From Fibrobacteria bacterium (GTDB lineage: Bacteria > Fibrobacterota > Fibrobacteria > UBA11236), in contig JANYDA010000001.1 of NCBI GenBank assembly GCA_025360005.1, forward strand, positions 87,144 through 151,143: 64,000 nucleotides of DNA. The letters are read 5' to 3'. The notes beneath the pieces are model-generated. The model had not been told where the DNA came from and searched no databases. It worked only from the letters and a program-made list of their open reading frames with translations. A program made the translations under genes and the position numbers. Below, in pieces: positions 968 through 40,662 of this stretch (its first letter is position 1; every line of letters starts with the position of its first letter).

Positions 968-1667
968 TCGGGCCGGCGTCCCGGATGAATAGATAACCTT
1001 CCCCCCATACCGTTTTGATGTAACGCGGATGGTGGGGGTTATCCCCCAATTTCCCGCGCAGCCTGCCGATCACAACATCTATGCTGCGGTTCATGGCTTC
1101 CCACTCCACTCCTTTCGTGCGCAAGGCGATGGTATCGCGGCTGAGGATGGCACCCGCATTCGCTATGAGCAAATCGAGCACGGCGTATTCCATCCCGGTC
1201 AAGTCCAGGGATTTTCCGCCTAGGAAGGCTTGCTTGGAGGAGCCGTCCAAGGTTACCCCGCGGATGCTGTTGACTTCGGTTTTCCCCGGAAAACCGATCC
1301 GCCTGAGGACGGACTGGATACGGGCGACGAGTTCGGTAGGCTCAAAGGGTTTGGGCAGATAGTCGTCCGCCCCAAGTTGCAAGCCCCTGACCCGGTCTTG
1401 AACATCGCCTCTGGCCGTCAGCATGATGATAGGCATCCGGCTCCGGGTCCGGATCTCCCGGCATATGGCGAAACCGTCCTGGCCCGGAAGCATCACGTCC
1501 AGGATCATCAGGGTCGGGTTGGCGCTGGCAATGAGGTTCAAGGCATCCTGGGGAAGGGTGGCAGCCAGGATCTCCCAGCCGAAAGGAGACAGGTAAACCT
1601 TGAGAAGGCTGATAAGCTCTTCGTCATCGTCCAGGATTAGGAGTACCGGTTTGGGTCCGGGCTTCAA
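960..1667 (-). CDS. OmpR/PhoB-family response regulator (receiver + winged-helix DNA-binding domain)
   Basis: Receiver signature LLILDDDEEL...MLDVMLPGQDGF...DDYLPKPF and C-terminal winged-helix LTGMEYAVLDLL...VDVVIGRLRGKL...IKTVWGEGY. 235 aa. Confidence 0.9.
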   Translation of the reverse strand: MKPGPKPVLLILDDDEELISLLKVYLSPFGWEILAATLPQDALNLIASANPTLMILDVMLPGQDGFAICREIRTRSRMPIIMLTARGDVQDRVRGLQLGADDYLPKPFEPTELVARIQSVLRRIGFPGKTEVNSIRGVTLDGSSKQAFLGGKSLDLTGMEYAVLDLLIANAGAILSRDTIALRTKGVEWEAMNRSIDVVIGRLRGKLGDNPHHPRYIKTVWGEGYLFIRDAGPNG

Positions 1668-3626: not shown

Positions 3627-4700
3627 ATGCCCAAGGTGAACCCGCTAAAACCGCTCCTGCGAGATTTCCCCGCCGCCACCCGGGCGTTCCTGCTGGCTGT
3701 TTCCATCACCCTGGTTTTAACATTCGTGATGCGCGTTACGTTCCATAGCAATAAGCCCGGGGTTTTCCTGCTGGGCGATTCCGGGATCGGAAATTACCGC
3801 CTGGATCCGGGACAAAGGCTCCAGGATTTCCTCGAACGCTCCAACCCTAAGACCGAGGTGGATAACTGGGCGGAGCCCGGGGCCACTCCCATGGATTTTT
3901 TCCTGCAGTACAGCCGGGGATGCGCCCTGGCCGGCAAACCCCGCACCGCCATCATCGCCTTTTCACCCGACAAGTTCCTGGAAGCCCCGGATTTCCACCG
4001 CTTCGATGACGGCGGCGTGAACCTGAGATGGCTCCCGTGGAATTCTACGGGGTTGAAACTATTCTCCCGGCTCACCGGGAAGGAGCGGAACGCCGCCATC
4101 GTACAGCAGGCGAGCATGCCGCTCTATGCCGCGGCGGACTTGGGCAAATCCCTGTGGATCCGCTATGTGCAATGGCCGTGGGAACGTTCGCAAATGCTGA
4201 CTCCCTCCGGAGAGCGCAAGAAGCGGATCGAGATGAAATCCATCGAATCCGGAAAAGCCAAGGATACTTTGAAGCTCATCGGCGACGATGCCTTCGCCGA
4301 GCTTCCCTTGGCAAAGGATTGCGAGTTCTTGCTCCGCTCTTTGCGGGAACAAGGCGTAGAGACAAGGGTTATCCTGCTCCCGATCGGAAATCCGAAACTG
4401 ATCCGCCTGACCTATTCCAACCATGCCCAAGCCAATCAGGACTCCGTTAAGGCCAGGATGCGCCATTGGCTGGATGTCCAGGGACAATCCTATGTGGATT
4501 TCAACGCTCCCGGGGAAATGGATCATTTTCCGGACTCCACCTGGGATGACATGAGCCATTTGAAATCCCCCTCCGCTTTCGCCTACATGTCCCGGAGAAT
4601 CCAGGAGTTCCTGAGATCGGCTGCGGTACGCGATGTCCAGATGCCTTATTCTTTGGTCAACTCCAGCGGCGAGGATGGAAACGCGGACGCGAGGAATTGA
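3627..4700 (+). CDS. DltD-like / SGNH-hydrolase-fold membrane-anchored protein
   Basis: The track ORF starts at 3585; the likelier start is ATG 3627 with an AAAGGA RBS immediately after the MBOAT stop. N-terminal TM helix, then a GDS-type motif FLLGDSGIGNY. Position between MBOAT and adenylase matches DltD. Confidence 0.55.
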   Translation: MPKVNPLKPLLRDFPAATRAFLLAVSITLVLTFVMRVTFHSNKPGVFLLGDSGIGNYRLDPGQRLQDFLERSNPKTEVDNWAEPGATPMDFFLQYSRGCALAGKPRTAIIAFSPDKFLEAPDFHRFDDGGVNLRWLPWNSTGLKLFSRLTGKERNAAIVQQASMPLYAAADLGKSLWIRYVQWPWERSQMLTPSGERKKRIEMKSIESGKAKDTLKLIGDDAFAELPLAKDCEFLLRSLREQGVETRVILLPIGNPKLIRLTYSNHAQANQDSVKARMRHWLDVQGQSYVDFNAPGEMDHFPDSTWDDMSHLKSPSAFAYMSRRIQEFLRSAAVRDVQMPYSLVNSSGEDGNADARN

Positions 4701-4701
4701 C

Positions 4702-6294
4702 GTGAGGCCCGATTTTTCCCGGCCCAACCTGGCCGAGCTTTTCTATCACTCCGCTTCCGTGTCTCCTGAAAGCCAAGCCCTGGGTTGCGAGGACCTTTCC
4801 CTGACCTACGCCCAACTCCTGGATCTGGTGGAGTCCGTGCGTGTCCCGCTCGGCGCGGACGGTTCTGAGTTCGTAGGTATCCTCGCCTATCGCAGCCCGC
4901 TGGCTTATGCCGCCGTGCAGGCCATCTTGGCGGAAGGCAAAGCCTATGTTCCCCTCAATCCCCTGTTTCCCGCCTCCCGGAACGCATACATTCTCCGCAA
5001 AGCGCGAATCACCACCCTGATCGTGGGGGAAGAATGCGCGGATTCCCTGTCGGCCCTGCTGCCGGAGTTGCGGAAGGCGGCCCATCCCATCCGGTTGGTT
5101 TTCCCGGAATGGATGCCATCCTTGCGGAGCCTGGTTGATGCGGCCGGCGAGGCGGTTCTTCCGATCGAAATGAAAATGGGATCGGCCCTTTCGCCTACGC
5201 CCGTAAAAGCGATTCCGGAAGACGGGAGCGCTTATGTCCTGTTCACCTCCGGCAGTACGGGCGTGCCCAAAGGAGTGCGGGTGCGGCATGACAATGTCCT
5301 CTCCTATCTGCGTTCCTTCCTGGCCGCCTACCCCATCTACCCGCATGACCGGATTTCCCAGACCTTCGATCTCACTTTCGATGTCAGCGTGCATGACCAG
5401 TTCATCACCTGGGCCGTGGGCGCCGTCCTCATCGTGTTTCCCGTCAAATCGCTTTTCTCGCCGCTGGCCTACGCCGCCGCCCAGAAGCTGACGATATGGT
5501 TCTCGGTGCCGGCGCGCGCCGCTTTCCTGGAAAGCGCGCGTCTGGTGGTACCGGGGGCGTTACCGGACGTACGCATAAGCCTGTTCGCGGGAGAAAAGCT
5601 CACCTGGAAGACATGCGAAATCTGGAAACGGATAGCGCCCCAAAGCCGAATTCTCAACCTGTACGGGCCCACGGAAGCCACTGTCGCTTTCACCCATTTT
5701 GAAATCCCGGAGGATTTTCCGGAAACGCGCGCCTATCAAGGCGGAATCCCCATCGGCAGAGCATGGCCGGGTCAAAGCGTCCAGGTACGCGCGGCCGACG
5801 GTTCCCTTTGCCGGGCCGGGCAGGCGGGATCGCTTTGGCTGGCCGGAGATCAGCTCGCACCCGGTTACCTGGACGAACCGGAAAAAACCGCGGAGAGATT
5901 CATATCGCGCGACGGAACCCTCTGGTATCGCACCGGCGATCTGGTCATCGAGGAGGCGGATGGGGCGCTGCAATACCTGGGCCGCGAGGATTTCCAGGTG
6001 AAGGTGATGGGCTACCGGATCGAGTTGGGCGAGATCGAACATGCCCTGATGAATTGCTCGGGCGCGGCCTTTGCGCTCGCCGACGTCGCGGCCATCCGGG
6101 GAGGGATGGAAGAGATATTTTGCGTGCTTCCCGGGCATCTGGCGGAGAGCAAAAAGGAAATCACCCTTTCCCTGAAGCGCTTGCTGCCCGCTTATATGGT
6201 GCCCCGGCATATTTTTTTCATCGATGACGTCCCCTTGAACGCCAACGGCAAAATGGATCGCGGAGCCCTTAAAGCGCAACTCACGCGGTCATAA
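4702..6294 (+). CDS. AMP-dependent adenylation enzyme (DltA-like carrier-protein ligase)
   Basis: Adenylation core motifs LFTSGSTGVPKGV, NLYGPTEATV, YRTGDL, GREDFQVKVMGYRIELGEIE and NANGKMDR. GTG 4702 with a GAGGAA RBS follows the upstream stop. Alternative ATG at 4675 or the track start 4633. Confidence 0.85.
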   Translation: MRPDFSRPNLAELFYHSASVSPESQALGCEDLSLTYAQLLDLVESVRVPLGADGSEFVGILAYRSPLAYAAVQAILAEGKAYVPLNPLFPASRNAYILRKARITTLIVGEECADSLSALLPELRKAAHPIRLVFPEWMPSLRSLVDAAGEAVLPIEMKMGSALSPTPVKAIPEDGSAYVLFTSGSTGVPKGVRVRHDNVLSYLRSFLAAYPIYPHDRISQTFDLTFDVSVHDQFITWAVGAVLIVFPVKSLFSPLAYAAAQKLTIWFSVPARAAFLESARLVVPGALPDVRISLFAGEKLTWKTCEIWKRIAPQSRILNLYGPTEATVAFTHFEIPEDFPETRAYQGGIPIGRAWPGQSVQVRAADGSLCRAGQAGSLWLAGDQLAPGYLDEPEKTAERFISRDGTLWYRTGDLVIEEADGALQYLGREDFQVKVMGYRIELGEIEHALMNCSGAAFALADVAAIRGGMEEIFCVLPGHLAESKKEITLSLKRLLPAYMVPRHIFFIDDVPLNANGKMDRGALKAQLTRS

Positions 6295-6321: not shown

Positions 6322-8922
6322 CTACGCCTTCGCTTTTGCCGCCGCTGCCGCCGCCGCCAGCTTCGGCTCCGGAAGCAGTTTCAATGCCAGCCAGGGCGTA
6401 AGACACATCGACGTCCCCAGCAAGGCCAGCAGGCCCAACACCGCGAACTTACCGATGCTGGCTATTCCCATGTGGGTGGTGAATAGCATCCCCGCATATC
6501 CGGCCGTGGTGGTCAAGGTGGAGACGGCCACCAGCACGCCGATGCCCCCATACAATTCCCCGATGCGATGGCGTCCCAGGCGCAAGTATCCCAGCAGCAT
6601 ATAGCTCCCCACGTCCACGGCATACCCTTGCAGGGTTGTGATGACGATCAGATTGAAAGGCCCGATTTTCAATCCCGACAAACCCATCAATCCCAGTATC
6701 CAAACCAGACCCACCGCCATCTGGATCAAGCAGGCGATCAGCAGGCGCCAATCCCGGAAGATCAGCGCCAGCAACAGGATCAACACCCCGACCATCCAGA
6801 TGGAAACGCGCAAGCTGTCCGATTTCACGATGTGGATGATGTCGCTGAAGACGAAGCTGGTGCTGAAGCTCGCCAACCTTTCGCCGCCGGCGGAGAGATG
6901 GCCGTAATGTTCCTGGAAAACCGAAGCATCCAGGGCGTTGGAGGAATTGTACCGTCCGTAGATGAAACCCAGGCGGCCGTAGCTGCCATCGCGCTCCCGG
7001 AGCAGGTTGAGGGCCCACGGCGGGATATCGGCGGGATGGAAGGGCGACGTCATGGCCAAGTCGCGCAAGTTGGCGATCATGGCGGAATCGTCCCCTTTGG
7101 CCCTATCGAACACGCGTGCGGAGATCAATTCCCCGATGTGGTTTATCTCCAGCATCCGTTCCTGTTGCGCCTGCACGGGCGGTACGAAAGTGGCCAAGGT
7201 AAGGAAGCTGCGCAAATACGGATCGCGGTTCACGGTGAGACGCCGGAGCAAGGTATCCTGGAGCGCGGCCATGGAAGCGGAATCCCTGGCCATGACCACT
7301 ACCGGCTGGCTGCTGGTGCGATTGCTGCCCAACGCCACGCTCACGGGCAGCCCGCCATCCTTCTCGCCGCGCGTGTCGCGCAATTTGGAGAAGTCGTATT
7401 CAAAAGCCAGGCGCGGTATGAAAAAGCCAAGCACCAGGGCACCCGCGCAAACGGTGAGGGCCGTTCCCTTTACCAGCTTGGGCCAATCCGGCCGCCATGA
7501 GAAGGGCCAACGGATCGGATCAGCCGCCCTGATGCGCAGCCATGCGAATCCCGGCACCGAGCCGAGGCTTTCCATAGCGAACAGGTATGCGGGCAAAAGC
7601 AGGTAGACGCCGGCTAGGCTCACCACTATACCTGCCGAGGCCTGGACGCCGAACTCATAGAAACCCACGAATTTGGAAGCCAGCAAGGTCAGCAAACCGG
7701 CCACGGTAGTGGATGCGCCCACCAGCAAGGAGAAGAAAAGCTCATCGAGTGTCCTGGCAAGCGCCGTCGCCCAATCCTCGCCCTCCCGGACCAGTCGCAG
7801 CGCGTACCCCAGCACGTAGATGGAAAAATCGATCCCCATGCCGAACAGGATGGAGACCACGAAAGCCGTATACAAATTCAAATGGCCATAGATACCCATG
7901 GTCAGGGCCAAAGTCACCAAGCAAGCGATGACCGCCTGCAAGAAAACCAGGAACACGGAACCGAAATTTCGGAAAAACGCCGCGATGATGAGGATGTTCA
8001 GTCCCACGGATATCAAGGTTGCCAATAAGCCGTTGCTCGCCAGCGAGTCCACCTCCGCCAATTCCTTGTAAGGGCCCTCCACGCCGATATTCAGCCGCGC
8101 GCCGTATTCGGAACGCAAGGGGCCCAGCAAGGCATGGCTGCGCGCCACTACCGTCTTCACGTAATCGAAATCGGAGCTGGGCTTGGACAGCGATGCCTGC
8201 ACCAATCCCACCAACTTGCCCTCGCGGGTCCTTCCCATCAGGCGGGAACGGAGCGAATCGGGGATGCCGCTCTTGGAGTCGTATTGATCCGCGCCGGTCT
8301 TTCCCTTTTTCAAAAACCGGGTGAAGGACTCGGCGGCCTCGTCCGGAAGTCCCAACTGCTGGGGCAAGTCCGCGTCGAACCACTCCCGCTTGGGTTTGGC
8401 GGCCGCCGAATCCTCGTCCAGAAGATCGACGGTCAATGGCCCTTGCTTGCCCAGGTCCAGCCTCAAGTCCTGGATCTCCCGCGAGATTTTCCGCAACTGA
8501 TCCTGGGGCAGGTAAAGCAATGCGTGTTTGCGGAAAAAGGAATTGTCGCGCTGCGATTGGGCATAGACTACGTCCGGCCACTTCCGCAGCGAATCCGCAA
8601 GCCTATCCTGGATGCGGGCCAGTTCCGCGGGATCCTGGATTGAGATGGCGATGGTATAGAGGTCGGAACTGCCCAAGCGGGTCTTGGCCTCGCGCATGGC
8701 GCGGATGGTTTCCGTGTTCCGCGGCAGCAGGGCGTCGAGATTGGCGTCTATGCGCAGATGGGTGGCATAGAATCCGCAGAGCGCGGAGGCGCCGAGACTG
8801 ATTGCCACGATGAGGAAACGATGGCGTTGGGAACGGCGGATATGCGACAGCAGCAACCGTTTCCAAAACCCGGCTTGGCGGGAGGATGTACCGACAAGGT
8901 TATTTTTCTTCGTTGATGTCAC
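6322..8922 (-). CDS. MMPL / RND-superfamily exporter (two 6-TM bundles with large periplasmic loops)
   Basis: 866 aa; duplicated MMPL-type transmembrane architecture (…GIDFSIYVLGY… and …GYAVDVGSYML…); C-terminal Ala/Lys tail. Its start overlaps the upstream lipoprotein gene by 23 nt. Confidence 0.8.
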   Translation of the reverse strand: MTSTKKNNLVGTSSRQAGFWKRLLLSHIRRSQRHRFLIVAISLGASALCGFYATHLRIDANLDALLPRNTETIRAMREAKTRLGSSDLYTIAISIQDPAELARIQDRLADSLRKWPDVVYAQSQRDNSFFRKHALLYLPQDQLRKISREIQDLRLDLGKQGPLTVDLLDEDSAAAKPKREWFDADLPQQLGLPDEAAESFTRFLKKGKTGADQYDSKSGIPDSLRSRLMGRTREGKLVGLVQASLSKPSSDFDYVKTVVARSHALLGPLRSEYGARLNIGVEGPYKELAEVDSLASNGLLATLISVGLNILIIAAFFRNFGSVFLVFLQAVIACLVTLALTMGIYGHLNLYTAFVVSILFGMGIDFSIYVLGYALRLVREGEDWATALARTLDELFFSLLVGASTTVAGLLTLLASKFVGFYEFGVQASAGIVVSLAGVYLLLPAYLFAMESLGSVPGFAWLRIRAADPIRWPFSWRPDWPKLVKGTALTVCAGALVLGFFIPRLAFEYDFSKLRDTRGEKDGGLPVSVALGSNRTSSQPVVVMARDSASMAALQDTLLRRLTVNRDPYLRSFLTLATFVPPVQAQQERMLEINHIGELISARVFDRAKGDDSAMIANLRDLAMTSPFHPADIPPWALNLLRERDGSYGRLGFIYGRYNSSNALDASVFQEHYGHLSAGGERLASFSTSFVFSDIIHIVKSDSLRVSIWMVGVLILLLALIFRDWRLLIACLIQMAVGLVWILGLMGLSGLKIGPFNLIVITTLQGYAVDVGSYMLLGYLRLGRHRIGELYGGIGVLVAVSTLTTTAGYAGMLFTTHMGIASIGKFAVLGLLALLGTSMCLTPWLALKLLPEPKLAAAAAAAKAKA

Positions 8923-29985: not shown

Positions 29986-30163
29986 CGCATTCGCGATTGG
30001 GGGTGAATAGCCCGGCTCCAGCATAATACGCGCGGATAAGGATTCGCGCCTCTCACTTGTCGCACGCTGAGGATAATCCGGTAATCGTGCAAGTGAACCG
30101 GGAAAAGAGCAACCCCCCGGGCAAGCCGACCCGCCTTGATGTCGGTGGGCGCCAGTTGCAGGG

Positions 30164-30179
30164 CCGCGGATATATCCGC
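30164..30179. promoter_or_regulatory. Perfect 16-bp palindrome CGCGGATATATCCGCG in a non-coding region
   Basis: Read directly from the sequence. Sits in a ~600-bp ORF-free stretch, 29925-30530. Confidence 0.4.
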
Positions 30180-30356
30180 GCCGGTGGGATCCCGGGGGGG
30201 GTTCCATGCCGACATAGCCGGCTTTGCGGAACGTCAGGGTATTGGCCGCGGCGGAGGCCTTCCTCGGATAAAGGTTGGATGGGTCTCCACTTTCCGAGGG
30301 GGAGTGGGCGAAGTTTAACCCGGAGGTCCGCTTTCCCGGTTCCGCCGCGTAGGGAT

Positions 30357-30400
30357 TCCGCTGGCAAAACGCCAGCGAGTTTGCAGGGCGGTTTTTTTCA
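30357..30400 (+). terminator. Terminator-like hairpin (CGCTGGC-aaaac-GCCAGCG) followed by a T7 run
   Basis: 7-bp GC-rich stem at 30357-30375, then GGCGGTTTTTTT ending about 30400. No annotated plus-strand gene lies upstream, suggesting a small transcript or attenuator. Confidence 0.3.
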
Positions 30401-30530
30401 GGATGCGCCATCATTGGTAGGTTTTTTGAATCCTCAGGCAAGCCTTGCGCCCTCCGTGGCAACATGTCCTCCCGGGGCCGAAACCATTCTCGTCGGTTTT
30501 GAGGTATAATGCATAGGATCGAAGAACGCT

Positions 30531-31388
30531 ATGAAAGCATCCAAGCAAGAACCAAACGCCAGGCCCGATATTTTCCGTTATGCGGACTATCGCGCCTTCC
30601 TCAAGGACAGCTATGAATCGCGTAAGGCCGCCAACCCGGCGTTCTCGCACCGTTACCTGGCCGCCAAGATAGGTTTCGATGCCGGGCAGTTCTCCAAGAT
30701 CCTGAGCGGAAAGCGCAACCTGACGCATGCCATGATCCTGAAGTTCTCGGATCTGTTCAAGCTGGGAAAGAAGGAAAAGGAATACTTCGAGCTTCTGGTG
30801 CTGGCCAATCACGCGAAAACACCCACCGACCGCGCGGAACTGCTCGCGAAGCTTCCGCCGTTGCGCCCCAAGGCCGCCAAAGCCGTGGCCTCCGGCCTGG
30901 ATGAATATTACCGGCATTGGTACCATAGCGCTTTGCGGGAGCTGCTTGGCTTCTATCCTTTCCGCGGCGACTGGAACGCCTTGGGGCGGATGCTCGTCCC
31001 TGCCCTTTCGGCCGAGCAAGCGGAAAAAGGCGTGATGCTATTGGTAGAGTTGGGATTCCTGCAGAAGGATGCGCAAGGCGGATTCCGCATTTCCGATCCG
31101 CATATCACCACCGGGTACAAAAGCCCTTCCGCGGCCGTGCACCATTTCATCCGGACCACGCTGGACCTGGCAAAAGGCTCCTTGGACGGCTTTCCCAAGG
31201 ATATCCGCAATCTGTCCACCCTGACCTTCAGCACCTCGGAGAACCACTTCCTGCAGATCCAGGAAAAGATCCGGCTGTTCCGCAAAGAGCTGGCGGATGA
31301 AGTGGACAAGGTGGAAAAGCCCGAACGCGTCTACCAACTCAATATGCAAATCTTCCCGCTATCGGAAACCTGGGGATCCGGCAAATGA
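30531..31388 (+). CDS. TIGR02147-family protein, copy 3
   Basis: …RPDIFRYADYRAFLKDSY…SHRYLAAKIGFDAGQFSKILSGKRNLT…YYRHWYH… aligns with copies 1 and 2. A TATAAT element lies 21 bp upstream. Overlaps the downstream lipoprotein gene by 4 nt. Confidence 0.75.
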   Translation: MKASKQEPNARPDIFRYADYRAFLKDSYESRKAANPAFSHRYLAAKIGFDAGQFSKILSGKRNLTHAMILKFSDLFKLGKKEKEYFELLVLANHAKTPTDRAELLAKLPPLRPKAAKAVASGLDEYYRHWYHSALRELLGFYPFRGDWNALGRMLVPALSAEQAEKGVMLLVELGFLQKDAQGGFRISDPHITTGYKSPSAAVHHFIRTTLDLAKGSLDGFPKDIRNLSTLTFSTSENHFLQIQEKIRLFRKELADEVDKVEKPERVYQLNMQIFPLSETWGSGK

Positions 31389-32749
31389 AAATCCCGTCGA
31401 CGCTATCCGTGCTGGCGGCCAGCTGCGGCGTGATGGCGGGGCTTTGCCTCACCGCATGCGGACCCAACCGCGTCGCCGGAGGCACCAGTTCGGAGGCGGA
31501 GGCGCTTCTGCAAGGAACGGTGACCAAGCCGGACGGTTCGGCCGCGGCGGGAGCCCGCGTGCGCATCCGCCCCATCGGCTACCTCTCCCGCTCCGGAACG
31601 GATACCTCCGCGCTCGCCGATTTGGTCGCCGATTCCCTGGGCAAGGTGAAATGGACCACCCGCGATACGGGACTCTTCAACCTGGAAGCGGAACTGGGGG
31701 ATACCTTGGGAACGCTGATAAGGGACATTTCCCCCGGCCGCGAATCCGGGCATCTCACCGCATCCCTGGACACCAACGGATCCATCCGCGTCAACCTGGC
31801 CACGCCTCAAGCCGGCTCCGGCTATTCCCTGCGCGTCTACGGAATGGAACGGTTCCAGGCAGCCGATGCCCAGGGTATCTTCCATGTTACCCTACCCGCC
31901 GGCGGCTACTCCCTCCTCATAGAGCATTCTCCGCCCTCCGGATCCCCGCTCTTGGTCCGGGACGTGCAGGTGGCCAGTGGAAAAACCACCCTGCTGGATT
32001 CGCTGCGCTTCCCGGCTTTGGATTCGGTCCTGCTGGGATACTGGGCCTTCGAGGAAGGCGGCGGCGATTCCGCCCGGGACGGCTCCGGGAACGGGCACGC
32101 GGGAATGGTGCGCGGCGCCCAATGGGTCGCGGGCAGGAAGGGCCTGGGACTCCGCTTTACGCAGGGACAGGGATACGTGGACATGGGAATTCCCCAACCG
32201 GACACTTTCGCCTTCGGCGCGGCCAGGGACTATTCCTTTTCGGTATGGGCCAAGACCGACAACCCCGTGCCCAACCGGGGGCTGGGGCGACGCATCATTT
32301 CCAAGCAAGGGGGCGCCAACGGATTCTCGTATTTCCTGCGCATCTTCCCGGATGGACGGCCCGGCTTCGCTTCCAACACGCGCAAGGACACGGTAAAAGC
32401 TCCCGCCGGATCCGTTACGGCCGCGCGGGATTTGATCGCGCCCGTGAACGTGGGCGACGGCGCCTGGCACCATTGGGCCGGGGTCCGCAAGCGGAACCGC
32501 CTGACCTTGTATATAGACGGCCAGGCTGTCGCCTCCGCCAGCGACGACAGCCTGAGATCGGATTATAGTTTTATCGATTACAATGATCACAGTGCCCTGC
32601 TATACCCGGATCCCGGGCAGGACAATCACCTTTTGATCGGCTGCGCCAAAACCGGCGTGGACGGTTTCGACGGCGTGATCGATGAAGCCCGCGTATACGG
32701 CCGCGCGCTCACGCCCCAGGAAATCCTGCTGCTCGCCGATCCTTTCTAA
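31385..32749 (+). CDS. Lipoprotein with C-terminal LamG/concanavalin-A-like lectin domain
   Basis: Lipobox LTAC. Mature N-terminus CGPNRVAGGTSSEAEAL. C-terminal LamG-type blocks (DGAWHHWAGVRKRNRLTLYIDGQAV…DGVIDEARVYGRALTPQEI). Confidence 0.75.
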   Translation: MKIPSTLSVLAASCGVMAGLCLTACGPNRVAGGTSSEAEALLQGTVTKPDGSAAAGARVRIRPIGYLSRSGTDTSALADLVADSLGKVKWTTRDTGLFNLEAELGDTLGTLIRDISPGRESGHLTASLDTNGSIRVNLATPQAGSGYSLRVYGMERFQAADAQGIFHVTLPAGGYSLLIEHSPPSGSPLLVRDVQVASGKTTLLDSLRFPALDSVLLGYWAFEEGGGDSARDGSGNGHAGMVRGAQWVAGRKGLGLRFTQGQGYVDMGIPQPDTFAFGAARDYSFSVWAKTDNPVPNRGLGRRIISKQGGANGFSYFLRIFPDGRPGFASNTRKDTVKAPAGSVTAARDLIAPVNVGDGAWHHWAGVRKRNRLTLYIDGQAVASASDDSLRSDYSFIDYNDHSALLYPDPGQDNHLLIGCAKTGVDGFDGVIDEARVYGRALTPQEILLLADPF

Positions 32750-32761
32750 GGATCCGTTAAG

Positions 32762-33994
32762 TTACTCCCCCAGTTTCCCGCGCAGGAATTTCACTTCCGT
32801 CTTGGAACTGGTGAGGCCGATGGCGGCCTGGAAATGCGCGCGGGCCTTCTCCGTCTCCCCCACCTGCGAATACAGCTCCCCTAATGTCGCATGCAGCAGG
32901 TAGTAGCCCTTAAGCTTGGGATGCTCTTTCAACGGTTCCAACTTTCCGATCGCCGCCCGCGGCCCTTGGGTTTGCGATAGGATCACCGCCCGGTTCAGTT
33001 CGATCACTGGATTATCCTTCAGCTCCGCCAATAAGGCGTAGCAGCCGTCGATCCGGTCCCACCGCGTGGACGCAAAATCCGGAGCCGTGCAATGTTCCGC
33101 CGCAATGGCGGCTTCCAGGTGGTATTCCGTAAGCTCATCCCCCTTGGCCGCCTCGGTCAACAGGTATTGGCCCGAACGGATAAGTTCTCTGCTCCAGCGT
33201 GTTCGATCCTGCCGGGAGAAAAGGATCAACGCTCCCCGATCATCGATGCGGCTTTCCAGGCGCGCGGCATGGAAGCACATCAAGGCCATCAGGGCGGAGG
33301 AGGCGGGCTGGCCGGGGAAACCGTCCAGGAGCAGCCGGCACAAGCGCATGGCCTCGTAGCAAAGATCCTTGCGGATCAGGAAATCCGGATGGGAAGAGTT
33401 ATAGCCTTCGTTGAAAAGCAGGTAGATGCCCAGGCGCACGCCCTTGAGGCGATCCTGCAGGGATGCATCGTCGGGGATTTCCAGCGGCAGATCCCGATCG
33501 CGGAACTCCTGCTTGGAACGGGCCAGCCGCTTTTCGATGGCGGATTCATTGGACAGCAGCGCGTTGGCGATCTCCTGCACGGAAAAGCCGCAGATGATCT
33601 TGAGGGTGAGGGCGAGCCGGGATTCCAGGGGCAGGATGGGATGGCAGCAGACGAACATCATGCGCAGCATGGAATCCTCCACGCGCTCTTGCTGGAAGGA
33701 CTCCTCGAAGCTGCCGAGGGTGAGGCCGTTCAGCTCCAGATCCAAGGCGTATTTGCCGGCCAGGGTCTCCCGCTTGAGATGGTTCAGGGCCTTGCGTTTG
33801 GCCACCGTCATGATCCAGGCGCTGGGGTTTTCGGGGACGGATCCATAGCTCCATTGCGTGAAGGCCGCCAGCAATGCTTCTTGCACCACGTCCTCGGCCA
33901 GTTGCAGGTTGCGCACTCCGAAAATCCCCGCAAGCAGGGAGACTATTCTCCCCGACTCATGGCGGAAGAAATGCTCCATCTCTTCCGGGGCCAT
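32762..33994 (-). CDS. ECF-type sigma-70 factor with long C-terminal extension (co-encoded with a YciI-like protein)
   Basis: Sigma region 2 (…EDVVQEALLAAFTQW…) and region 4 (…FSVQEIANALLSNESAIEKRLARSKQE…) followed by a ~230-aa extension. The track ORF starts at 34030; the internal Met (MAPEEMEHFF) abuts the upstream gene's stop. Confidence 0.8.
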   Translation of the reverse strand: MAPEEMEHFFRHESGRIVSLLAGIFGVRNLQLAEDVVQEALLAAFTQWSYGSVPENPSAWIMTVAKRKALNHLKRETLAGKYALDLELNGLTLGSFEESFQQERVEDSMLRMMFVCCHPILPLESRLALTLKIICGFSVQEIANALLSNESAIEKRLARSKQEFRDRDLPLEIPDDASLQDRLKGVRLGIYLLFNEGYNSSHPDFLIRKDLCYEAMRLCRLLLDGFPGQPASSALMALMCFHAARLESRIDDRGALILFSRQDRTRWSRELIRSGQYLLTEAAKGDELTEYHLEAAIAAEHCTAPDFASTRWDRIDGCYALLAELKDNPVIELNRAVILSQTQGPRAAIGKLEPLKEHPKLKGYYLLHATLGELYSQVGETEKARAHFQAAIGLTSSKTEVKFLRGKLGE

Positions 33995-34329
33995 TACATA
34001 TTGCCCAGTTTGCGAACCTCCAGCTGGCAATGGTCCAGCAGCGGGTTCTCCTTGGCCAAGGCCACAGCATCATCGTAATCCTTGGCCAGCACGATGCAAT
34101 AGCCGCCCACGATTTCCTTGGACTCCAGGAAAGGCCCGTCCGTAATAACGGTTTTCTTGTCCTTTACCAACCGCCCGGTGCCGGGTTCCAGCGGCTGCCC
34201 GCCTTTGTAACGTCCCGCCACGACCATCTTTTCCTTCCATACGGTGAAGGCTCCCATCCGCTTTTGCATCACCTCGGGGGAGACGTCGTTGTAATCGTAT
34301 CCGCGCACCAGGAAAATGAATTCATCCAT
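33994..34329 (-). CDS. YciI-like (YCII-related) small protein, partner of the ECF sigma factor
   Basis: 111 aa, …YKGGQPLEPGTGRLV… and …GGYCIVLAKDYDDAVALAKENP… typical of the YCII fold. Immediately upstream of, and co-directional with, the sigma gene. Confidence 0.8.
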   Translation of the reverse strand: MDEFIFLVRGYDYNDVSPEVMQKRMGAFTVWKEKMVVAGRYKGGQPLEPGTGRLVKDKKTVITDGPFLESKEIVGGYCIVLAKDYDDAVALAKENPLLDHCQLEVRKLGNM

Positions 34330-34491
34330 CGTAAACTCCTTGTTTGCATCCCGGGCCTAACATCGGGCCCGATTAACACGATGACAAGCGGCCGGATCGG
34401 TTCCGGACAAATAAATAATCTTTCCCATCCCGCCTAGGGATTTCCCCTACTTGTTTTAAGGGCCTCTACCCGATTCAAACCGCGGCGATTC

Positions 34492-35526
34492 TTGGTAAAC
34501 TCTGTTTTATGTCCATGCAGTGAAAGCATGATTTTCCCGATGGAGGCCATGCGAGTGGATGTCATTGCGGGCGCCGGCAAGAAACGCCGAAGTAAAAAGC
34601 CATTCCTGCGGCCCCAGGAAAAAGTGGCGGAAATGATTCTCGCATCCCTCGGTCCTTTCGGGGAAATCCGCAGCAGGACCGTATCGGGCCTTGAAAAGCC
34701 CGGGCTCGCCGACTGCCTCTTGATCGAAGGCATGGTAAAAGGCAAACATCATCGGGTCATGGTAGCCAATGCCCGGGCAGCATCCAGTACCTCCGCGGAA
34801 GGCTTTCGGCGGGTGGCCGCCCTCCGCAAAACCTTGGGGGCGGATGCAGCATTCATCTGCGTTCGCGGCGCTCTTGGCGGCGAGGCATTGCTCCGCTGCC
34901 TCCACCTGGGTTTGATACCCGTTGAGATCCATTCCTCCGGGAAAGGGCTTAAGGTCCATTTGGGGTCCGCCACCGTGGTGCGGCACACATCCATCCAATC
35001 CTGGGCGCTCTCCACATCCGATTCCTCCGATGCCGGAAACGGGAAATCCTTCGACGAGGAATCCGGGGAGCTTCTATTCCAAGGCAAATCCGTCCGCCAT
35101 TGGATAGGCCGGGAATCCGCGCGGCTGCTCCGCAAGGTGGAACGGGATTGCATCCTTTCCGCCCGTTACCGTTTCAAGCAAAGGGTCACATTCCGGATCC
35201 GGAAAGGAACGTTCACCGCAGACGCCTTCGAAATCCGCTTCGCATGCCGGATCCGGAACCGGGTGCACTCCCTGCAGGCCGATCTGGAGGGATTGGAATA
35301 CCGTCACCGCCTGCGCCAAGCGGTCCCAGCCGCAAGAAAATCCAACCGGAAGCCGGGGCCGGGAGGATTGGCAGGCTTGATCCAAAACGAATCCCCGCTC
35401 GCCGCCACCGTCCCGGTCAAGCCCCGGTTGCTGGTGTACCATCCCGTGGAAGCCCCATCCCGGCCAGGTCTGCCGGATTTGTCGCGGCGGATCCTATCCG
35501 TGAGCGTTGATATCAAATATTCCTGA
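34492..35526 (+). CDS. Hypothetical protein (no recognisable domain)
   Basis: 344-aa ORF with GC-rich third positions. No motif identified. Could be a shadow ORF in a decayed region; see the adjacent receiver remnant. Confidence 0.3.
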   Translation: MVNSVLCPCSESMIFPMEAMRVDVIAGAGKKRRSKKPFLRPQEKVAEMILASLGPFGEIRSRTVSGLEKPGLADCLLIEGMVKGKHHRVMVANARAASSTSAEGFRRVAALRKTLGADAAFICVRGALGGEALLRCLHLGLIPVEIHSSGKGLKVHLGSATVVRHTSIQSWALSTSDSSDAGNGKSFDEESGELLFQGKSVRHWIGRESARLLRKVERDCILSARYRFKQRVTFRIRKGTFTADAFEIRFACRIRNRVHSLQADLEGLEYRHRLRQAVPAARKSNRKPGPGGLAGLIQNESPLAATVPVKPRLLVYHPVEAPSRPGLPDLSRRILSVSVDIKYS

Positions 35527-35800
35527 GCATATCCTTACGGCCCAGGCCGGGCAGGCTCCAATCGCTGATGATGATCTGGAATTTGCGGCTGAGCAGGGAC
35601 AATCAAGCCTTTTCCGCGTCTTCCACGGCAACCGCTTCGTGCCCCCGGCCTTTCAGAAAGGAGTCGCACGGGGCCGGATTGACGGGATCATCTTCGACGA
35701 GGAGTATGTTCCTGGAGGTTCCACAGGATCGGCAGCTTGCTTCATACCGTGGGGATATCCTATCATTGATCGCGGATACAATCACGGCAAAGGAGCCTTG
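35527..35800 (-). pseudogene. Remnant of a response-regulator receiver domain interrupted by in-frame TGA stops
   Basis: Minus-strand frame reads MQGSF…NILLVEDDPVNPAPCDSFLKGRGHEAVAVEDAEKA*LSLLSRKFQIIISDWSLPGLGRKDMLRNI*. This is a canonical receiver N-terminus (LLVEDD…, …DLIISDW.MPG.DG…) continuing through one TGA and ending at a second. Confidence 0.45.
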
Positions 35801-35802
35801 CA

Positions 35803-36498
35803 TTGAAAACCGAGCCGGATGCCACAAGCAAAGCCACTCTACGGATCCTGGTCGTGGACGACCATCCCGTGGTGAGGCAGGGGCTGGTGATGACCTTGGG
35901 CAGGCATCCCGGATTTTCCGTCTGCGGGGAAGCGGCGAGTCTGCCTGAGGCATTGGACGCGATCGCCAAGAACCCGCCCGATCTGGTCCTCTCCGATCTG
36001 GTGCTCGAAGGCGCCAGCGGATTGGACCTGATCAAAGAGATCCGCGCCCGGCATCCCGGCGTACCTGCGCTCATCCTCTCCATGCATGACGAGGAAGTCT
36101 ATTCGGAAAGGGTTTTGCGCGCCGGGGCGCGGGGCTACCTGATGAAGAACGAACATCCCGATCGCATTGTGGAAGGCATCCTCACTGTTCTGAAAGGCGA
36201 AATCGCCATCAGCGAAAAGATGAAAGCCAAGATCCTGGGACGTATGGCCGGAAGCAGGGAAGCGAAGCAGGGCTTTTCCGTGGATCGCCTAACGGATAGG
36301 GAGCTGGAGGTATTCCGCCTAGTCGGCGAGGGGCTTTCCACGCGGAAGATGGCCGACAAACTCTCCCTCAGCATCAAAACCATCGAGGCCCACATCGCGC
36401 ATGTTAAACGAAAATTGGGTACCGAATCGGGAAGGGAGTTGCAATTGCGCGCCTTCAATTGGATAGCCGATTCCGGATCCCGCCGCCCTCCGGTATAG
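35803..36498 (+). CDS. NarL/FixJ (LuxR-type) family response regulator
   Basis: Receiver LRILVVDDHPVVRQGL…LVLSDLVLEG…; C-terminal LuxR HTH LTDRELEVFRLVGEGLSTRKMADKLSLSIKTIEAHIAHVKRKLG. Confidence 0.9.
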   Translation: MKTEPDATSKATLRILVVDDHPVVRQGLVMTLGRHPGFSVCGEAASLPEALDAIAKNPPDLVLSDLVLEGASGLDLIKEIRARHPGVPALILSMHDEEVYSERVLRAGARGYLMKNEHPDRIVEGILTVLKGEIAISEKMKAKILGRMAGSREAKQGFSVDRLTDRELEVFRLVGEGLSTRKMADKLSLSIKTIEAHIAHVKRKLGTESGRELQLRAFNWIADSGSRRPPV

Positions 36499-36582
36499 CC
36501 CTTTCGCCTCCCGATCCATCGCTTGCTTCATCAGCTTGATCCGTTCTACCCGTCCGGCGCCGGGTCCGGTATCTGCGTTGCG

Positions 36583-39500
36583 TTAACGCGGCGTCTCCAG
36601 TAAGCCGCAGGTTTCCTCGAACACATCCTCCAAATGCGGAAACATGGCGGCGAGGTTTTCCGTCCGGCCCGATCCGGCTTCCCCTTCCATGGCTTCCAAC
36701 TGCCCGAACATGCCCCTGGCCCCGATGGTCCCGCAACCGCCCTTCATCTTATGCAAGGCTTTTCCCACCTGCCTCCAGCGGGAGGCGTCCAGATCCGCGC
36801 GGAGGGATTCCAAGGAAGTCCGCGTGGTATCCACGAACAGCCGGATCAGGCTCCGCACCATCTCGGAACCCCGGCTTGTCCCGTCGGTCAAGTTTTCCAA
36901 GCGCGCCCAATCCACCATGGATTGGGCGGCTCCGCCATTGCCATCGGATGGCATATCCGATGAGGATGGAGAACCGGGGAACGGCAGGGCATCCGCCTCC
37001 GTCTTGATCCATTTGCGGAGAATCTTGGCGATTTGCTCCAAGGTAAAAGGCTTGGAGATATAATCGTCCATGCCCTCGGCCAGGCAGCGTTCCCTGGCGC
37101 CGTTGACGGCATGCGCCGTCAGGGCGACGATGCGGGTACGCCGTCTTCCGCTTTCCTGCGCCCGCAGCCGCCGGGTGGTTTCGTAGCCGTCCATGACGGG
37201 CATTTGGCAGTCCATGAATACCAGATCATAAGGTCTGGCCAGGGCGGCGAAGAGCGCCGCGGAACCTTCCTGGACGGTTTCCACGTCGCACCCCATCCGC
37301 TTCAGCATGGCGGAAGCCACCGTAAGATTGACGGGGTGATCGTCCACCACCAGGATCCGGGGCGGGAAGGCCCAGTCCGGGGAGATGGAACCGGCGCCGG
37401 CCTTTTCCGGAACGGCAAGGCCTACCCCGTGCCAATCCGGGAGCGCGCAGCGGATGGCGTTGTATACGTCCGAACCGCGCCAAGGCTTGGCCAGGATCCC
37501 CGCCGCTCCCGCGCGGACGAGTCCGGCCCAGCGCGCCTGTGCGAAAAAAGGTAACGTACAAAGTACCGGTACTCCTGCGATACGGGCGCGGGACAGGATC
37601 CGCAGCGTCGCCTCGGATTCGGCCGCCTCCTGAGGCAGCGCCAGGATGGCCAGCGCAACGCCGGACTCCCCCGGAGCGTCCAGGTGGCGCAGCAATTCCT
37701 GGCCATCGGCCAATGCCCGGGTGGCGAAACCGAAGCGCGTCAGGATCGCTTGGGCCTGGGAAAGGGACTCCCCATGGGGTTCCACCATCAAGGCCAGCTG
37801 TTTTTCCCCGTCCCGATCGGCATCGTTCTCCCATCCGCCGCTTGTCCCGCTCTCCCCCAGCCTTACCGTGAACCGGAAACAGGTTTCCTCCCGCGGTTTG
37901 CTCTCCACCCAGATCCTTCCCCCCATCCGTTCGACCAGTTCCTTGCTGATGGCCAGACCGAGTCCGGTCCCGCCCGCCTTGCGCGCCAGCGTGGCGTCCC
38001 CTTGCCGGAAAGGCCGGAACAGGTTCTCCATGGCGGCGGGGGAAATCCCCGGTCCCCGATCGGCCACTTCAAAAAGTACTTCGCAAGCACCGCCGCTTTT
38101 CGCGAGCAGGCTGCTGCCGATGCGGATGGTTCCCCGATCGGAAAACTTCACGGCATTGCCCAGCAGGTTCATGAGTACCTGTTGCAGGCGCACGGGATCG
38201 CCGATCACGCGCGCGGGGATGGCCGGATCCGGCTTGACGGCGATTTCCATGCCTTTCTTCTGGGCCATTTCCAAGACCGACGTGAAGGCGCCTTCCACCA
38301 CCGCATCCAGGGAGAACTCGCTGGAATCCAGATCCATGCGGCCGCTTTCCAGCTTGGAGAAATCCAGCACCTGGTTGATGAGCGAAAGCAGATGGTCCCC
38401 GCTTTCCCTGCCGGCCCGCGCATAAGTCTGCTGTTCCGCGCTTAACTCCGTATCCGACAGCAAGGACATCATTCCCAATACCCCGTTCAAGGGGGTGCGG
38501 ATTTCATGGCTCATATGGGCCAGGAATTCCGACTTGGCATGATTGGCGGCTACGGCCTCCTTTTCCGCCGCGGCCAAGGCCGATTGCGTGGCTTTCTCAT
38601 GGGTCAAATCGATGGCGACGATGAGGTATCTTTCCGATTCGTCCACATGGGCCACGCCGCGATAAACCGGCACCGTCGAGCCGTCCTTCCTGCGGTAGCG
38701 GGTTTCCTGCGGATCCATTTTCCCGGTATTCCGGACGGAAACCTCCACTTCGGCATATTGCCGTTTCAGCTCCGGGACATGGAGCGATTCGGCGGTAACC
38801 TTTCCCGCTTCCAGTTCCTGCCGCGTATATCCGGTCAGATCCAAGTACGCATCATTGGCTTCCTCGAATACCCTGGACTTATTCATAACGGCCATGCCGA
38901 CGATGTTGGAATCGAACATGTTCTTGAAACGGGATTCCACCACCCGCAATTCCGCCTTGGTCCGTTTCAACTCGTTGGTATCCAGGACCATGCACAGGGC
39001 GTTCCCATTGCCTTCCATCTTGGTGGCGAAGAACAGAGTATTCAAGCGGGCGCCGTCCCGCAATTGCCATTCCCGATCGAAAGGCCCCATGCGTCCCGTT
39101 CGCTGGAACTGCCCGCGGCGCGCCTCCGCCCCGTCCGCGTACTCCGGAGTGGCCATGGCGGCGGTGTAGATCAATCCCGCCTCCAATTCGGGGCGGGTAT
39201 GCCGGATCATGGCGAGGAAGGTATCGTTCGCTTCGGTGACTTGCCCGCGCAGGTCGGTGACGAAAATACCTATCAGCGTGCTGGACAGGAGATCGCGGTA
39301 GCGCGAATCGCGCAAGCGCAATTCCCGCCGGGCGTGCTTCAATGGGCCTATGTCCATCACCATGCACAGGGCCCGGTCCGGTTCCTCCATCAGCGAAGCA
39401 TAGGCCAGGCTGCTGAATACCCTGCCGTCCCGCAAGGTCCAGTCCCGCTCGAAGGGGCCGATCTGCCCATCCAGCCGGAAACGCGCCGCGTTGGCCTGGG

Positions 39501-40662
39501 CCTGCCCCAGGCCTTCCGGAGTGGTCATGCTGTACATATCGATTTCGCCTTGGGCCAAATCCTCCCGGGTGTATCCCATCATGGCCAGGAAGGTTTCGTT
39601 CGCCTCCTGGACCTTGCCTTGCAAATCCGTAACGTAGATGCCGATCAATTTGCTGTTCCACAAGCAGCCGTAGCGCGATTCACGGCTGCGCAGGGCGGCT
39701 TCCGTGCGCCGCTGGCTTTGAATGAGGGCGGCCGGAACCAAGGAACAGAAGGCGGCGGCATATGGGAATACCTGCATGGAGACCAGCATCCCGGAACCCG
39801 GTTCCCCGCCCAAGGCGAAAGGCCCTTGGCCGCGGCTGGTGAACCAGGCCGTGATCACATAAACGCCCAGTTGCACCGTGGTCGCACCGCGCGCTCCGAA
39901 GCGCAGGGCCGCCCACACCAGGAAGGGAAAGGCGATGTACGGCATCGGCCTGCCCAATGCGGACCAGAGGACGGCAGGGCGGGCGAAAGTCACGTAGGCC
40001 ATGAACAAGGCTGCGGCGGTCCCGGCCGCGAACTCGGCGCTGGACCACTTCCTCCTTTCCCAACGGAAGCCGCCATGCAGCCAGGCCAGCATAACCGGCG
40101 TAGTCACCGCCAAGCCTGCCGCATGGGTTACCAGCCAATTCCCGCATTGACGGGCGATGCCGCCGCCGTAAAAGAGGGAAGCGGTGACCCCGCCGATGGC
40201 GGCGGAAACTCCCGCGCTGCCCAGGCAGACTATTGTGAAGAAGCGGATGGTACCCGGGAGGTTACCCAGAAAGGCGGAGCCCCCCGGAAGCCCTTTCACA
40301 AGGCGGAAGGCCGCGGCCACCTCCGCGATGTTGGCGAGGGTGAAACCCAGGCTGGGAAGCACGGTTTTGCCATGGAACAGATTGGCTGAGAAAAGCGCGA
40401 GCGCGCTCATGCCCAAGACGGCCCGGCGCCAGGGCGGCGGGCAGCGGAGCAATACCGCAAGGAGGAAACCGTTGCCGGGCCAGAAAACGGAAACGGAATC
40501 CGGACCCCGGGCGAATAACATGCTGGCGGCGATGAAGGCCAGGTAGAGGCCGGCCAGGCCGCCAATGGCCGCGATGTCTTTGAAAGCCTGCGATCCGCGC
40601 CCCTGACCCGTTTGCTTGGCTATTGCCGGATCCGTTCCATCTTCATTGATAGGCTTATCCAT
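36583..40662 (-). CDS. Hybrid sensor histidine kinase: MASE1 membrane sensor + four PAS + HisKA/HATPase + two receiver domains + C-terminal Hpt
   Basis: 1359 aa. Polytopic N-terminus (MASE1-like). Four PAS-like repeats (…LIGIYVTDLQGKVQEANETFLAMMGYTREDL… and similar). H-box AHMSHEIRTPLNG. HATPase G-boxes. DDHPVNL… and …VDDHPVNLTVASAMLKRMGCDVETVQEG…FMDCQMPVMDGYE receiver domains. Terminal Hpt with HKMKGGCGTIGA. Confidence 0.9.
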   Translation of the reverse strand: MDKPINEDGTDPAIAKQTGQGRGSQAFKDIAAIGGLAGLYLAFIAASMLFARGPDSVSVFWPGNGFLLAVLLRCPPPWRRAVLGMSALALFSANLFHGKTVLPSLGFTLANIAEVAAAFRLVKGLPGGSAFLGNLPGTIRFFTIVCLGSAGVSAAIGGVTASLFYGGGIARQCGNWLVTHAAGLAVTTPVMLAWLHGGFRWERRKWSSAEFAAGTAAALFMAYVTFARPAVLWSALGRPMPYIAFPFLVWAALRFGARGATTVQLGVYVITAWFTSRGQGPFALGGEPGSGMLVSMQVFPYAAAFCSLVPAALIQSQRRTEAALRSRESRYGCLWNSKLIGIYVTDLQGKVQEANETFLAMMGYTREDLAQGEIDMYSMTTPEGLGQAQANAARFRLDGQIGPFERDWTLRDGRVFSSLAYASLMEEPDRALCMVMDIGPLKHARRELRLRDSRYRDLLSSTLIGIFVTDLRGQVTEANDTFLAMIRHTRPELEAGLIYTAAMATPEYADGAEARRGQFQRTGRMGPFDREWQLRDGARLNTLFFATKMEGNGNALCMVLDTNELKRTKAELRVVESRFKNMFDSNIVGMAVMNKSRVFEEANDAYLDLTGYTRQELEAGKVTAESLHVPELKRQYAEVEVSVRNTGKMDPQETRYRRKDGSTVPVYRGVAHVDESERYLIVAIDLTHEKATQSALAAAEKEAVAANHAKSEFLAHMSHEIRTPLNGVLGMMSLLSDTELSAEQQTYARAGRESGDHLLSLINQVLDFSKLESGRMDLDSSEFSLDAVVEGAFTSVLEMAQKKGMEIAVKPDPAIPARVIGDPVRLQQVLMNLLGNAVKFSDRGTIRIGSSLLAKSGGACEVLFEVADRGPGISPAAMENLFRPFRQGDATLARKAGGTGLGLAISKELVERMGGRIWVESKPREETCFRFTVRLGESGTSGGWENDADRDGEKQLALMVEPHGESLSQAQAILTRFGFATRALADGQELLRHLDAPGESGVALAILALPQEAAESEATLRILSRARIAGVPVLCTLPFFAQARWAGLVRAGAAGILAKPWRGSDVYNAIRCALPDWHGVGLAVPEKAGAGSISPDWAFPPRILVVDDHPVNLTVASAMLKRMGCDVETVQEGSAALFAALARPYDLVFMDCQMPVMDGYETTRRLRAQESGRRRTRIVALTAHAVNGARERCLAEGMDDYISKPFTLEQIAKILRKWIKTEADALPFPGSPSSSDMPSDGNGGAAQSMVDWARLENLTDGTSRGSEMVRSLIRLFVDTTRTSLESLRADLDASRWRQVGKALHKMKGGCGTIGARGMFGQLEAMEGEAGSGRTENLAAMFPHLEDVFEETCGLLETPR

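Follow-up and report, generated by a model that had tools for sequence, protein, structure and literature searches.

A probable 5′ remnant of a receiver-domain response-regulator gene beside a NarL-type regulator in a Fibrobacteria bacterium

The interval between positions 35527 and 35802 of the window, the 64,000-nucleotide stretch of Fibrobacteria bacterium DNA analysed here, very probably holds a non-functional 5′ remnant of a response-regulator gene. About 30% of a gene for a protein of ~200 aa is left, on the minus strand at 35527..35713 (codons 1 to ~62 of ~204), and it would have been inactivated by three lesions: the loss of the start codon, a TGA in place of a conserved tryptophan codon and a deletion of ~470 nt. 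Sequence homology, conserved gene order, all three lesions and exact agreement with a second assembly are demonstrated below, and the remnant probably yields no protein. An earlier sequence-only reading had proposed a receiver-domain pseudogene next to a NarL-type regulator and a giant hybrid kinase. This proposal is upheld by intact orthologues at the same position in related bacteria and by the lesions found here, and both neighbours were confirmed by Pfam.

The remnant lies between intact genes. A NarL/LuxR-type response regulator (REC and GerE domains, Pfam) is encoded on the plus strand at 35803..36498, divergent from the remnant, and its product is 76% identical to the orthologue in one related locus, L045. 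The gene starts at a TTG codon; its recorded protein (P0001, 214 aa) was called from a start further downstream. It is followed on the minus strand at 36583..40662 by a hybrid histidine kinase of 1359 aa, in which Pfam finds MASE1, three PAS domains, HisKA, HATPase_c, REC and Hpt. Kinase orthologues of 1316–1350 aa occupy the same position in two further loci, L046 and L047. On the other side of the remnant a conserved gene with no assigned function converges on it from the plus strand (34492..35526) and ends, intact, in TGA. This gene encodes 344 aa if counted from a TTG codon and 332 aa as called in an independent assembly. It matches no Pfam or NCBIfam model, and it has a coding GC pattern and syntenic homologues 40–51% identical in L045, L046 and L048. 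The family is small, with only 16 representative clusters (E ≤ 1e-3) among 1.84 billion proteins. As the C-terminus of the protein (…DIKYS) is colinear with the ends of its homologues (…TIRYP, …STKFE) up to the stop, the TGA at 35524..35526 is the ancestral stop codon. In L045, L046 and L048 the gene is consistently linked to the module of REC gene, NarL gene and MASE1 kinase. Just to the left of it in the window, at 32762..34329 on the minus strand, is a typical SigJ-like pair: a weakly YCII-like gene for 111 aa (33994..34329) precedes one for a sigma factor of the ECF type that carries DUF6596 (422 aa).

The minus-strand frame of the remnant opens with an Asn codon at 35708..35710 and was read directly from the sequence as NILLVEDDPVNPAPCDSFLKGRGHEAVAVEDAEKA, a stop, LSLLSRKFQIIISDWSLPGLGRKDMLRNI and a further stop. 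Over 35516..35710 it translates as NILLVEDDPVN…AEKA, the first stop, and LSLL…IIISDWSLPGLGRKDMLRNI up to the second stop. The two in-frame TGAs reported by the sequence-only reading are thereby confirmed, at 35603..35605 and 35513..35515. With the stops masked, the fragment matches positions 1–65 of the 111 positions of the Pfam Response_reg model (PF00072, E 4.8e-6), which bears out both the canonical receiver N-terminus and the continuation of receiver sequence beyond the first TGA that had been noticed before. The score of 27.1 bits falls just below the gathering cut-off of 30.2 and so misses the threshold set for a full domain, as is expected for half a domain.

Using the AlphaFold model of an intact orthologue for secondary structure, the remnant comprises β1, α1, β2, α2, β3 and the first turn of α3. 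It shares with the REC domain of PF00072 the N-terminal half, including the acidic pair that follows β1 (ILLVEDD) and the phospho-acceptor Asp at the end of β3 (IIISDW). The acidic pocket (E-D-D) and the phospho-acceptor Asp of ISDW are both retained, and LLVEDD and IIISDW align with the invariant D8, the near-invariant D9 and the invariant D51 of the family of intact proteins described below. In contrast to a complete REC domain the remnant has no start codon, contains an internal stop, and lacks most of α3 and everything from β4 to α5, with the conserved Thr/Ser at the end of β4 and the Lys at the end of β5. Profile positions 66–111 are unmatched in any downstream frame, and splicing each of three downstream frames onto the fragment gave no Pfam match beyond position ~66. 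The string SGDSFWIKP was considered as the β5 Lys motif and rejected, being the antisense of the real plus-strand gene.

The closest relative of the remnant is the gene in the corresponding place in L045, which encodes a receiver domain followed by a C-terminal Cys/His domain (REC+Cys/His). A tblastn search of the window with the intact L045 protein finds 35516..35710 at 66% identity over 65 aa (E 2e-23), and blastp with the Met and the Trp restored gives 71% identity over 62 aa, to residues 1–62 of the L045 protein. The other REC domains of the window reach at most 30% identity to the fragment, which is the generic level of the family. The L045 match far exceeds this, and the fragment is therefore assigned as an orthologue of the L045 gene. 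Its GC content at codon positions 1, 2 and 3 (0.615, 0.385 and 0.708) follows the coding pattern of this genome, the neighbouring genes giving 0.63, 0.42–0.49 and 0.72–0.77.

Intact orthologues are 193–207 aa long and consist of the receiver domain and a conserved Cys/His domain of ~60 aa with the motif C-x2-C … H-x2-C-x2-C. The family consensus for this region is …LPICMYCKKIR-D…W…E…F(S/T)HS-CPDCY…, as seen for example in P0121 (from L045) and P0122 (from a MAG labelled ‘Fibrobacteria bacterium’), and C137, C140, H167, C170 and C173 are invariant. Pfam has no model of the domain, and no relative of it was found in the PDB. The AlphaFold model of an intact orthologue has a mean pLDDT of 87, with values >90 in the receiver part and about 60 in the Cys/His domain. 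The family is fairly large, with 294 matches at E ≤ 1e-20 among 457 word-sharing candidates. Its members are labelled at source ‘response regulator’ or carry automatic names such as ‘phosphoserine phosphatase RsbU/P’, although no PP2C domain is detected in the family. A literature search on the CKKIR motif returned only irrelevant matches. The remnant occupies the same genomic position as these genes, divergent from NarL, with the MASE1/Hpt kinase adjoining and the same convergent gene beyond, and it is 66–72% identical to the N-terminus of P0121, closer than to other REC domains. It differs from them in lacking residues ~63–204, and so descends from the family without being a functional member of it.

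Related loci were found via the NarL protein in a large protein collection, where the relatives are 100% (P0001), 79%, 76%, 70%, 67% and 65% identical, and their contigs, from MAGs labelled Fibrobacterota/Fibrobacteria, were retrieved and compared. A NarL scan of the GTDB-representative collection reached only 46–47% (Verrucomicrobiota and other MAGs), with no relative of the fragment nearby. In L045 (NarL 76%) the REC+Cys/His gene is intact, encoding 204 aa at 535..1149 on the minus strand, and the order of genes is the gene of no known function (stop at 495), the REC gene, NarL on the plus strand from 1266 and the hybrid kinase on the minus strand. The same order is found in L048 and L049 (NarL 76%), where the intact product has 207 aa (L048 2759..3382); L049 is the same gene as L048 from another assembly. 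In L047 (NarL 65%) an intact gene for 193 aa (7337..7918, minus strand) adjoins NarL and a MASE1…Hpt kinase of 1316 aa. The REC+Cys/His gene is thus directly upstream of NarL and divergent from it in L045, L047 and L048. In L044 (NarL 70%) the gene is again intact (205 aa, 4615..5232, minus strand), with an extra MASE1 kinase between it and NarL. The 1.3-kb contig of P0004 (NarL 79%) probably carries the gene too, as a divergent reading frame of at least 167 aa that runs off the contig.

The exception is L046 (Fibrobacteres MAG GCA_028287505.1, 7038..8000; NarL 64–67%), in which the REC+Cys/His gene is wholly gone and NarL follows the gene of no known function after 87 nt, a more complete loss than that in the window. 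Because of this absence the gene is regarded as dispensable, and it has been lost at least two times among the six loci compared.

Three lesions separate the window copy from these genes. The first is the start codon. Orthologues begin with ATG in L045, L047 and L048, in the context ATG-AAC/AAT-AT(A/T)… (M-N-I-L-L-V-E-D-D), and exactly one residue, a Met, precedes the equivalent of the Asn in 100 of 119 family members. DNA alignments place AGG at this position in the window (35711..35713, minus strand). The second lesion is the first in-frame TGA (35603..35605, minus strand), which aligns with the TGG of Trp-37 in both L045 and L047 and arises from a single G>A transition at base 35603. This tryptophan is shared by 40 of the 44 close relatives and by 100 of the 119 family members. 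Of the two origins offered for this stop in the sequence-only reading, a recent nonsense mutation or a sequencing error, the nonsense mutation is borne out by this alignment, while an error is unlikely and ‘recent’ can be kept only in a relative sense, as is detailed below.

The third lesion is a deletion, which came to light when the orthologous loci were compared. The sequence-only reading had put this comparison forward as a check; it found the intact gene of 193–207 aa in the same position, and also revealed what that reading had missed. The stop of the convergent neighbour and the start of the REC gene are separated by 187 nt in the window, against 654 nt in L045 and 676 nt in L048. The window is thus shorter here by ~467–489 nt, which correspond to REC codons ~63–204 and the spacer. 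These two loci are fairly distant (NarL 76%), so the end points of the deletion are approximate and the lesions are listed here in no order of time. Receiver-derived sequence ends at a junction at 35527..35533, where it abuts the convergent gene's stop codon. The deletion took the rest of α3, β4 (with the near-invariant T81), α4, β5 (with the invariant K103) and α5, and also the whole Cys/His domain with its five invariant residues. Residues 63–204 have left no trace in any frame or at any other place in the window, and no C-x2-C … H-x2-C-x2-C motif occurs in any frame of it. The earlier statement that no output domain follows holds for the window; the ancestor, however, had a C-terminal domain of the Cys/His type.

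The second TGA (35513..35515, minus strand) had been taken for a stop within the receiver reading. It lies past the deletion junction, antisense to Ile/Lys codons at the C-terminus of the plus-strand gene, and it is simply the first in-frame stop beyond the junction rather than one derived from the receiver. Insertion of the plus-strand reading frame was rejected as the cause of truncation, since this frame is also syntenic with an undamaged REC gene in each of L045 and L048. The short repeats found near the junction were only weak two-copy matches and were treated as chance.

Beyond the three lesions the remnant bears marks of relaxed constraint. At 11 of the 63 retained positions the window copy has a state unseen in 44 intact close relatives, which themselves show 0–7 such states (median 2). 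Nine of the 11 are missense changes and the start and stop changes make up the rest. They include G58R, in a column that is Gly in 44/44, as well as S57G, V26A, L22R and the pair L12P and L14P, which place two prolines inside helix α1. The fragment is 71% identical to L045, slightly less than NarL at 76%. For the intact pair L045/L048 the REC N-terminus is 89% identical and NarL 83%, and for L045/L047 the values are 68% and 67%. As the REC N-terminus is conserved as well as NarL or better between intact genes, the inactivation is recent when set against the divergence from the L045 lineage. On the evidence of the nine unseen missense changes, ‘recent’ would hold in relative terms only, and drift since then appears not to have been zero. 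Decay beyond the three lesions nevertheless seems modest, given the coding-like composition and the 71% against 76% identity.

The divergent intergenic region (35714..35802) is preserved, as alignment of the window with L045, L048, L049 and L047 indicates. The motif GGGGATATCCTATCATTGATC at 35751..35771, the ribosome-binding site AAAGGAG at 35789..35795 and the TTG start of NarL behind it are all conserved with L045 and L048. Lying between the REC start and the NarL start, the motif may be a shared promoter or operator. Written more generally, it is GGGGATATCCTATCATT(G/A)(A/T)TC (plus strand of the window; ~1215..1235 in L045; intergenic in L048) and contains the palindrome GGATATCC. The preservation of the region agrees with a deletion that was kept in check on this side by selection on NarL expression and on the other side by selection on the plus-strand gene.

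These features might be taken to mean that the remnant has been retained in a new role, as a short peptide, a regulatory leader or promoter/operator DNA for NarL, the more so as the deletion stopped short of the intergenic region. We consider this very unlikely. The conserved motif is in the true intergenic region and outside the receiver-coding remnant, and L046 does without the REC gene, with NarL only 87 nt after the upstream gene. A peptide of 35 residues spanning β1-α1-β2 and devoid of a start codon is implausible as a folded product. No Rfam match was found in 35300..35950, and a word-seeded search of 5.8 billion proteins with the fragment as query gave one word-sharing candidate and no significant relative. 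The lack of matches in this last search is put down to the word index, for which the fragment is too short and has diverged too far.

A gene without lesions would look like this if the stops were sequencing or assembly errors, and a single base change at 35603 would indeed restore the tryptophan. Such an explanation is barely credible here. The Logan assembly of SRR20627849 (L043) is 100% identical to window positions 29997..37214, a stretch of 7218 nt free of mismatches and gaps. Some of its reads may also underlie the window assembly, so that the point mutations are confirmed at the level of the assembly. The gene calls recorded for L043 place no gene in the remnant interval. In addition the intact flanking genes are only 276 nt apart where orthologues need about 650–680 nt, residues 63–204 are untraceable in the window and the start codon is mutated as well. 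Base-call error is excluded as the full cause, because the absence of 470 nt cannot be a base-call error, and resequencing cannot restore a full-length gene, because ~140 codons are deleted. Scans of metagenome DNA for the sequence around the stop, allowing any letter at the mutated base, gave no match.

It is similarly hard to entertain that the frame is open because TGA is translated, either as tryptophan in a code resembling genetic code 4 or as selenocysteine. The first TGA does align exactly with a conserved Trp, as it would if TGA encoded this residue. However, 35 of 73 long open reading frames in the window end in TGA, including the convergent neighbour, whose C-terminus ends as its homologues do. 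In seven supported genes all 41 Trp codons are TGG and no TGA is in frame, and three of these genes end in TGA, so the read-through in this lineage that the sequence-only reading had raised is contradicted. The genome has about 60% G+C, and a selenocysteine would be expected to align with Cys, not Trp. Even with read-through there would be no start codon, and the product would have neither the conserved Thr and Lys nor an output domain. Finally, it is next to impossible, in spite of the sub-threshold Pfam score, that non-coding DNA here resembles a receiver by chance or that the fragment is a partial copy of one of the REC domains nearby, since the match to the syntenic orthologue (E 2e-23, 66–71% identity) is far from chance and the other REC domains in the window share no DNA or protein similarity with the fragment beyond the generic family level, for which reason duplication was rejected.

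The decayed-gene reading leads to the following proposed history. In this lineage the start codon has changed from ATG to AGG and the codon of the conserved Trp-37 from TGG to TGA. A deletion of ~470 nt has removed most of α3, β4 to α5, the Cys/His domain and the spacer as far as the stop of the neighbour, and the old frame now passes through the neighbour's 3′ end in antisense to reach the second TGA. An accessory relay branch would have been lost here, with the core of 1359-aa kinase and NarL regulator retained, and the surviving part of the locus probably still serves as the upstream region of NarL.

Pseudogene formation by nonsense mutation plus deletion is a general phenomenon in bacteria. 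The window case resembles others of this kind in having several independent lesions, an intact orthologue, loss elsewhere and an excess of unusual substitutions, and nothing sets it apart from bacterial pseudogenes in general; its deletion ends exactly at the stop codon of a neighbour, which is expected if larger deletions are selected against. Taken alone the pseudogene is of little weight, a routine instance of decay at a two-component locus in an uncultured bacterium, and in annotation 35527..35802 should be labelled a pseudogene remnant and not a gene.

The REC+Cys/His regulator appears as a dispensable accessory of a conserved kinase–NarL module, and the mildly interesting by-product of the analysis is this uncharacterized family and its repeated loss. 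By general knowledge of phosphorelays a phospho-acceptor role can be proposed for the family protein. Given its constant association with an Hpt-bearing hybrid kinase and a NarL regulator, the ancestral protein was most likely a second phospho-acceptor of the kinase/Hpt relay, serving as an alternative output or a phosphate sink. A wider proposal sees in the remnant the mark of an accessory arm of a MASE1-kinase/Hpt phosphorelay that was lost repeatedly and in particular lineages. The arm would carry an undescribed, widespread and probably metal-binding Cys/His output domain, and the 5′ stub may persist by adjoining or contributing to the NarL regulatory region. As a whole this is doubtful, and we put it forward as speculation.

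The kinase part of the module varies among the relatives. A single giant MASE1…Hpt kinase (~1316–1359 aa) is present in the window, L046 and L047, and L047 has an 888-aa MASE1 kinase in addition. In L044 (5410..10898) kinases lie on either side of NarL, one with MASE1-PAS-HisKA-HATPase-REC architecture (845 aa) and the other with PAS-HisKA-HATPase-REC-Hpt (721 aa). This variation suggests domain fusion or fission, or duplication, within the module. At the start of the REC gene in L045 (~1135..1180, minus strand) there is a small tandem repeat, ATGAACATACTTTT / ATGAACCCACTTTT / ATGAACATACTTTTGG, which amounts to a local triplication of the first codons.
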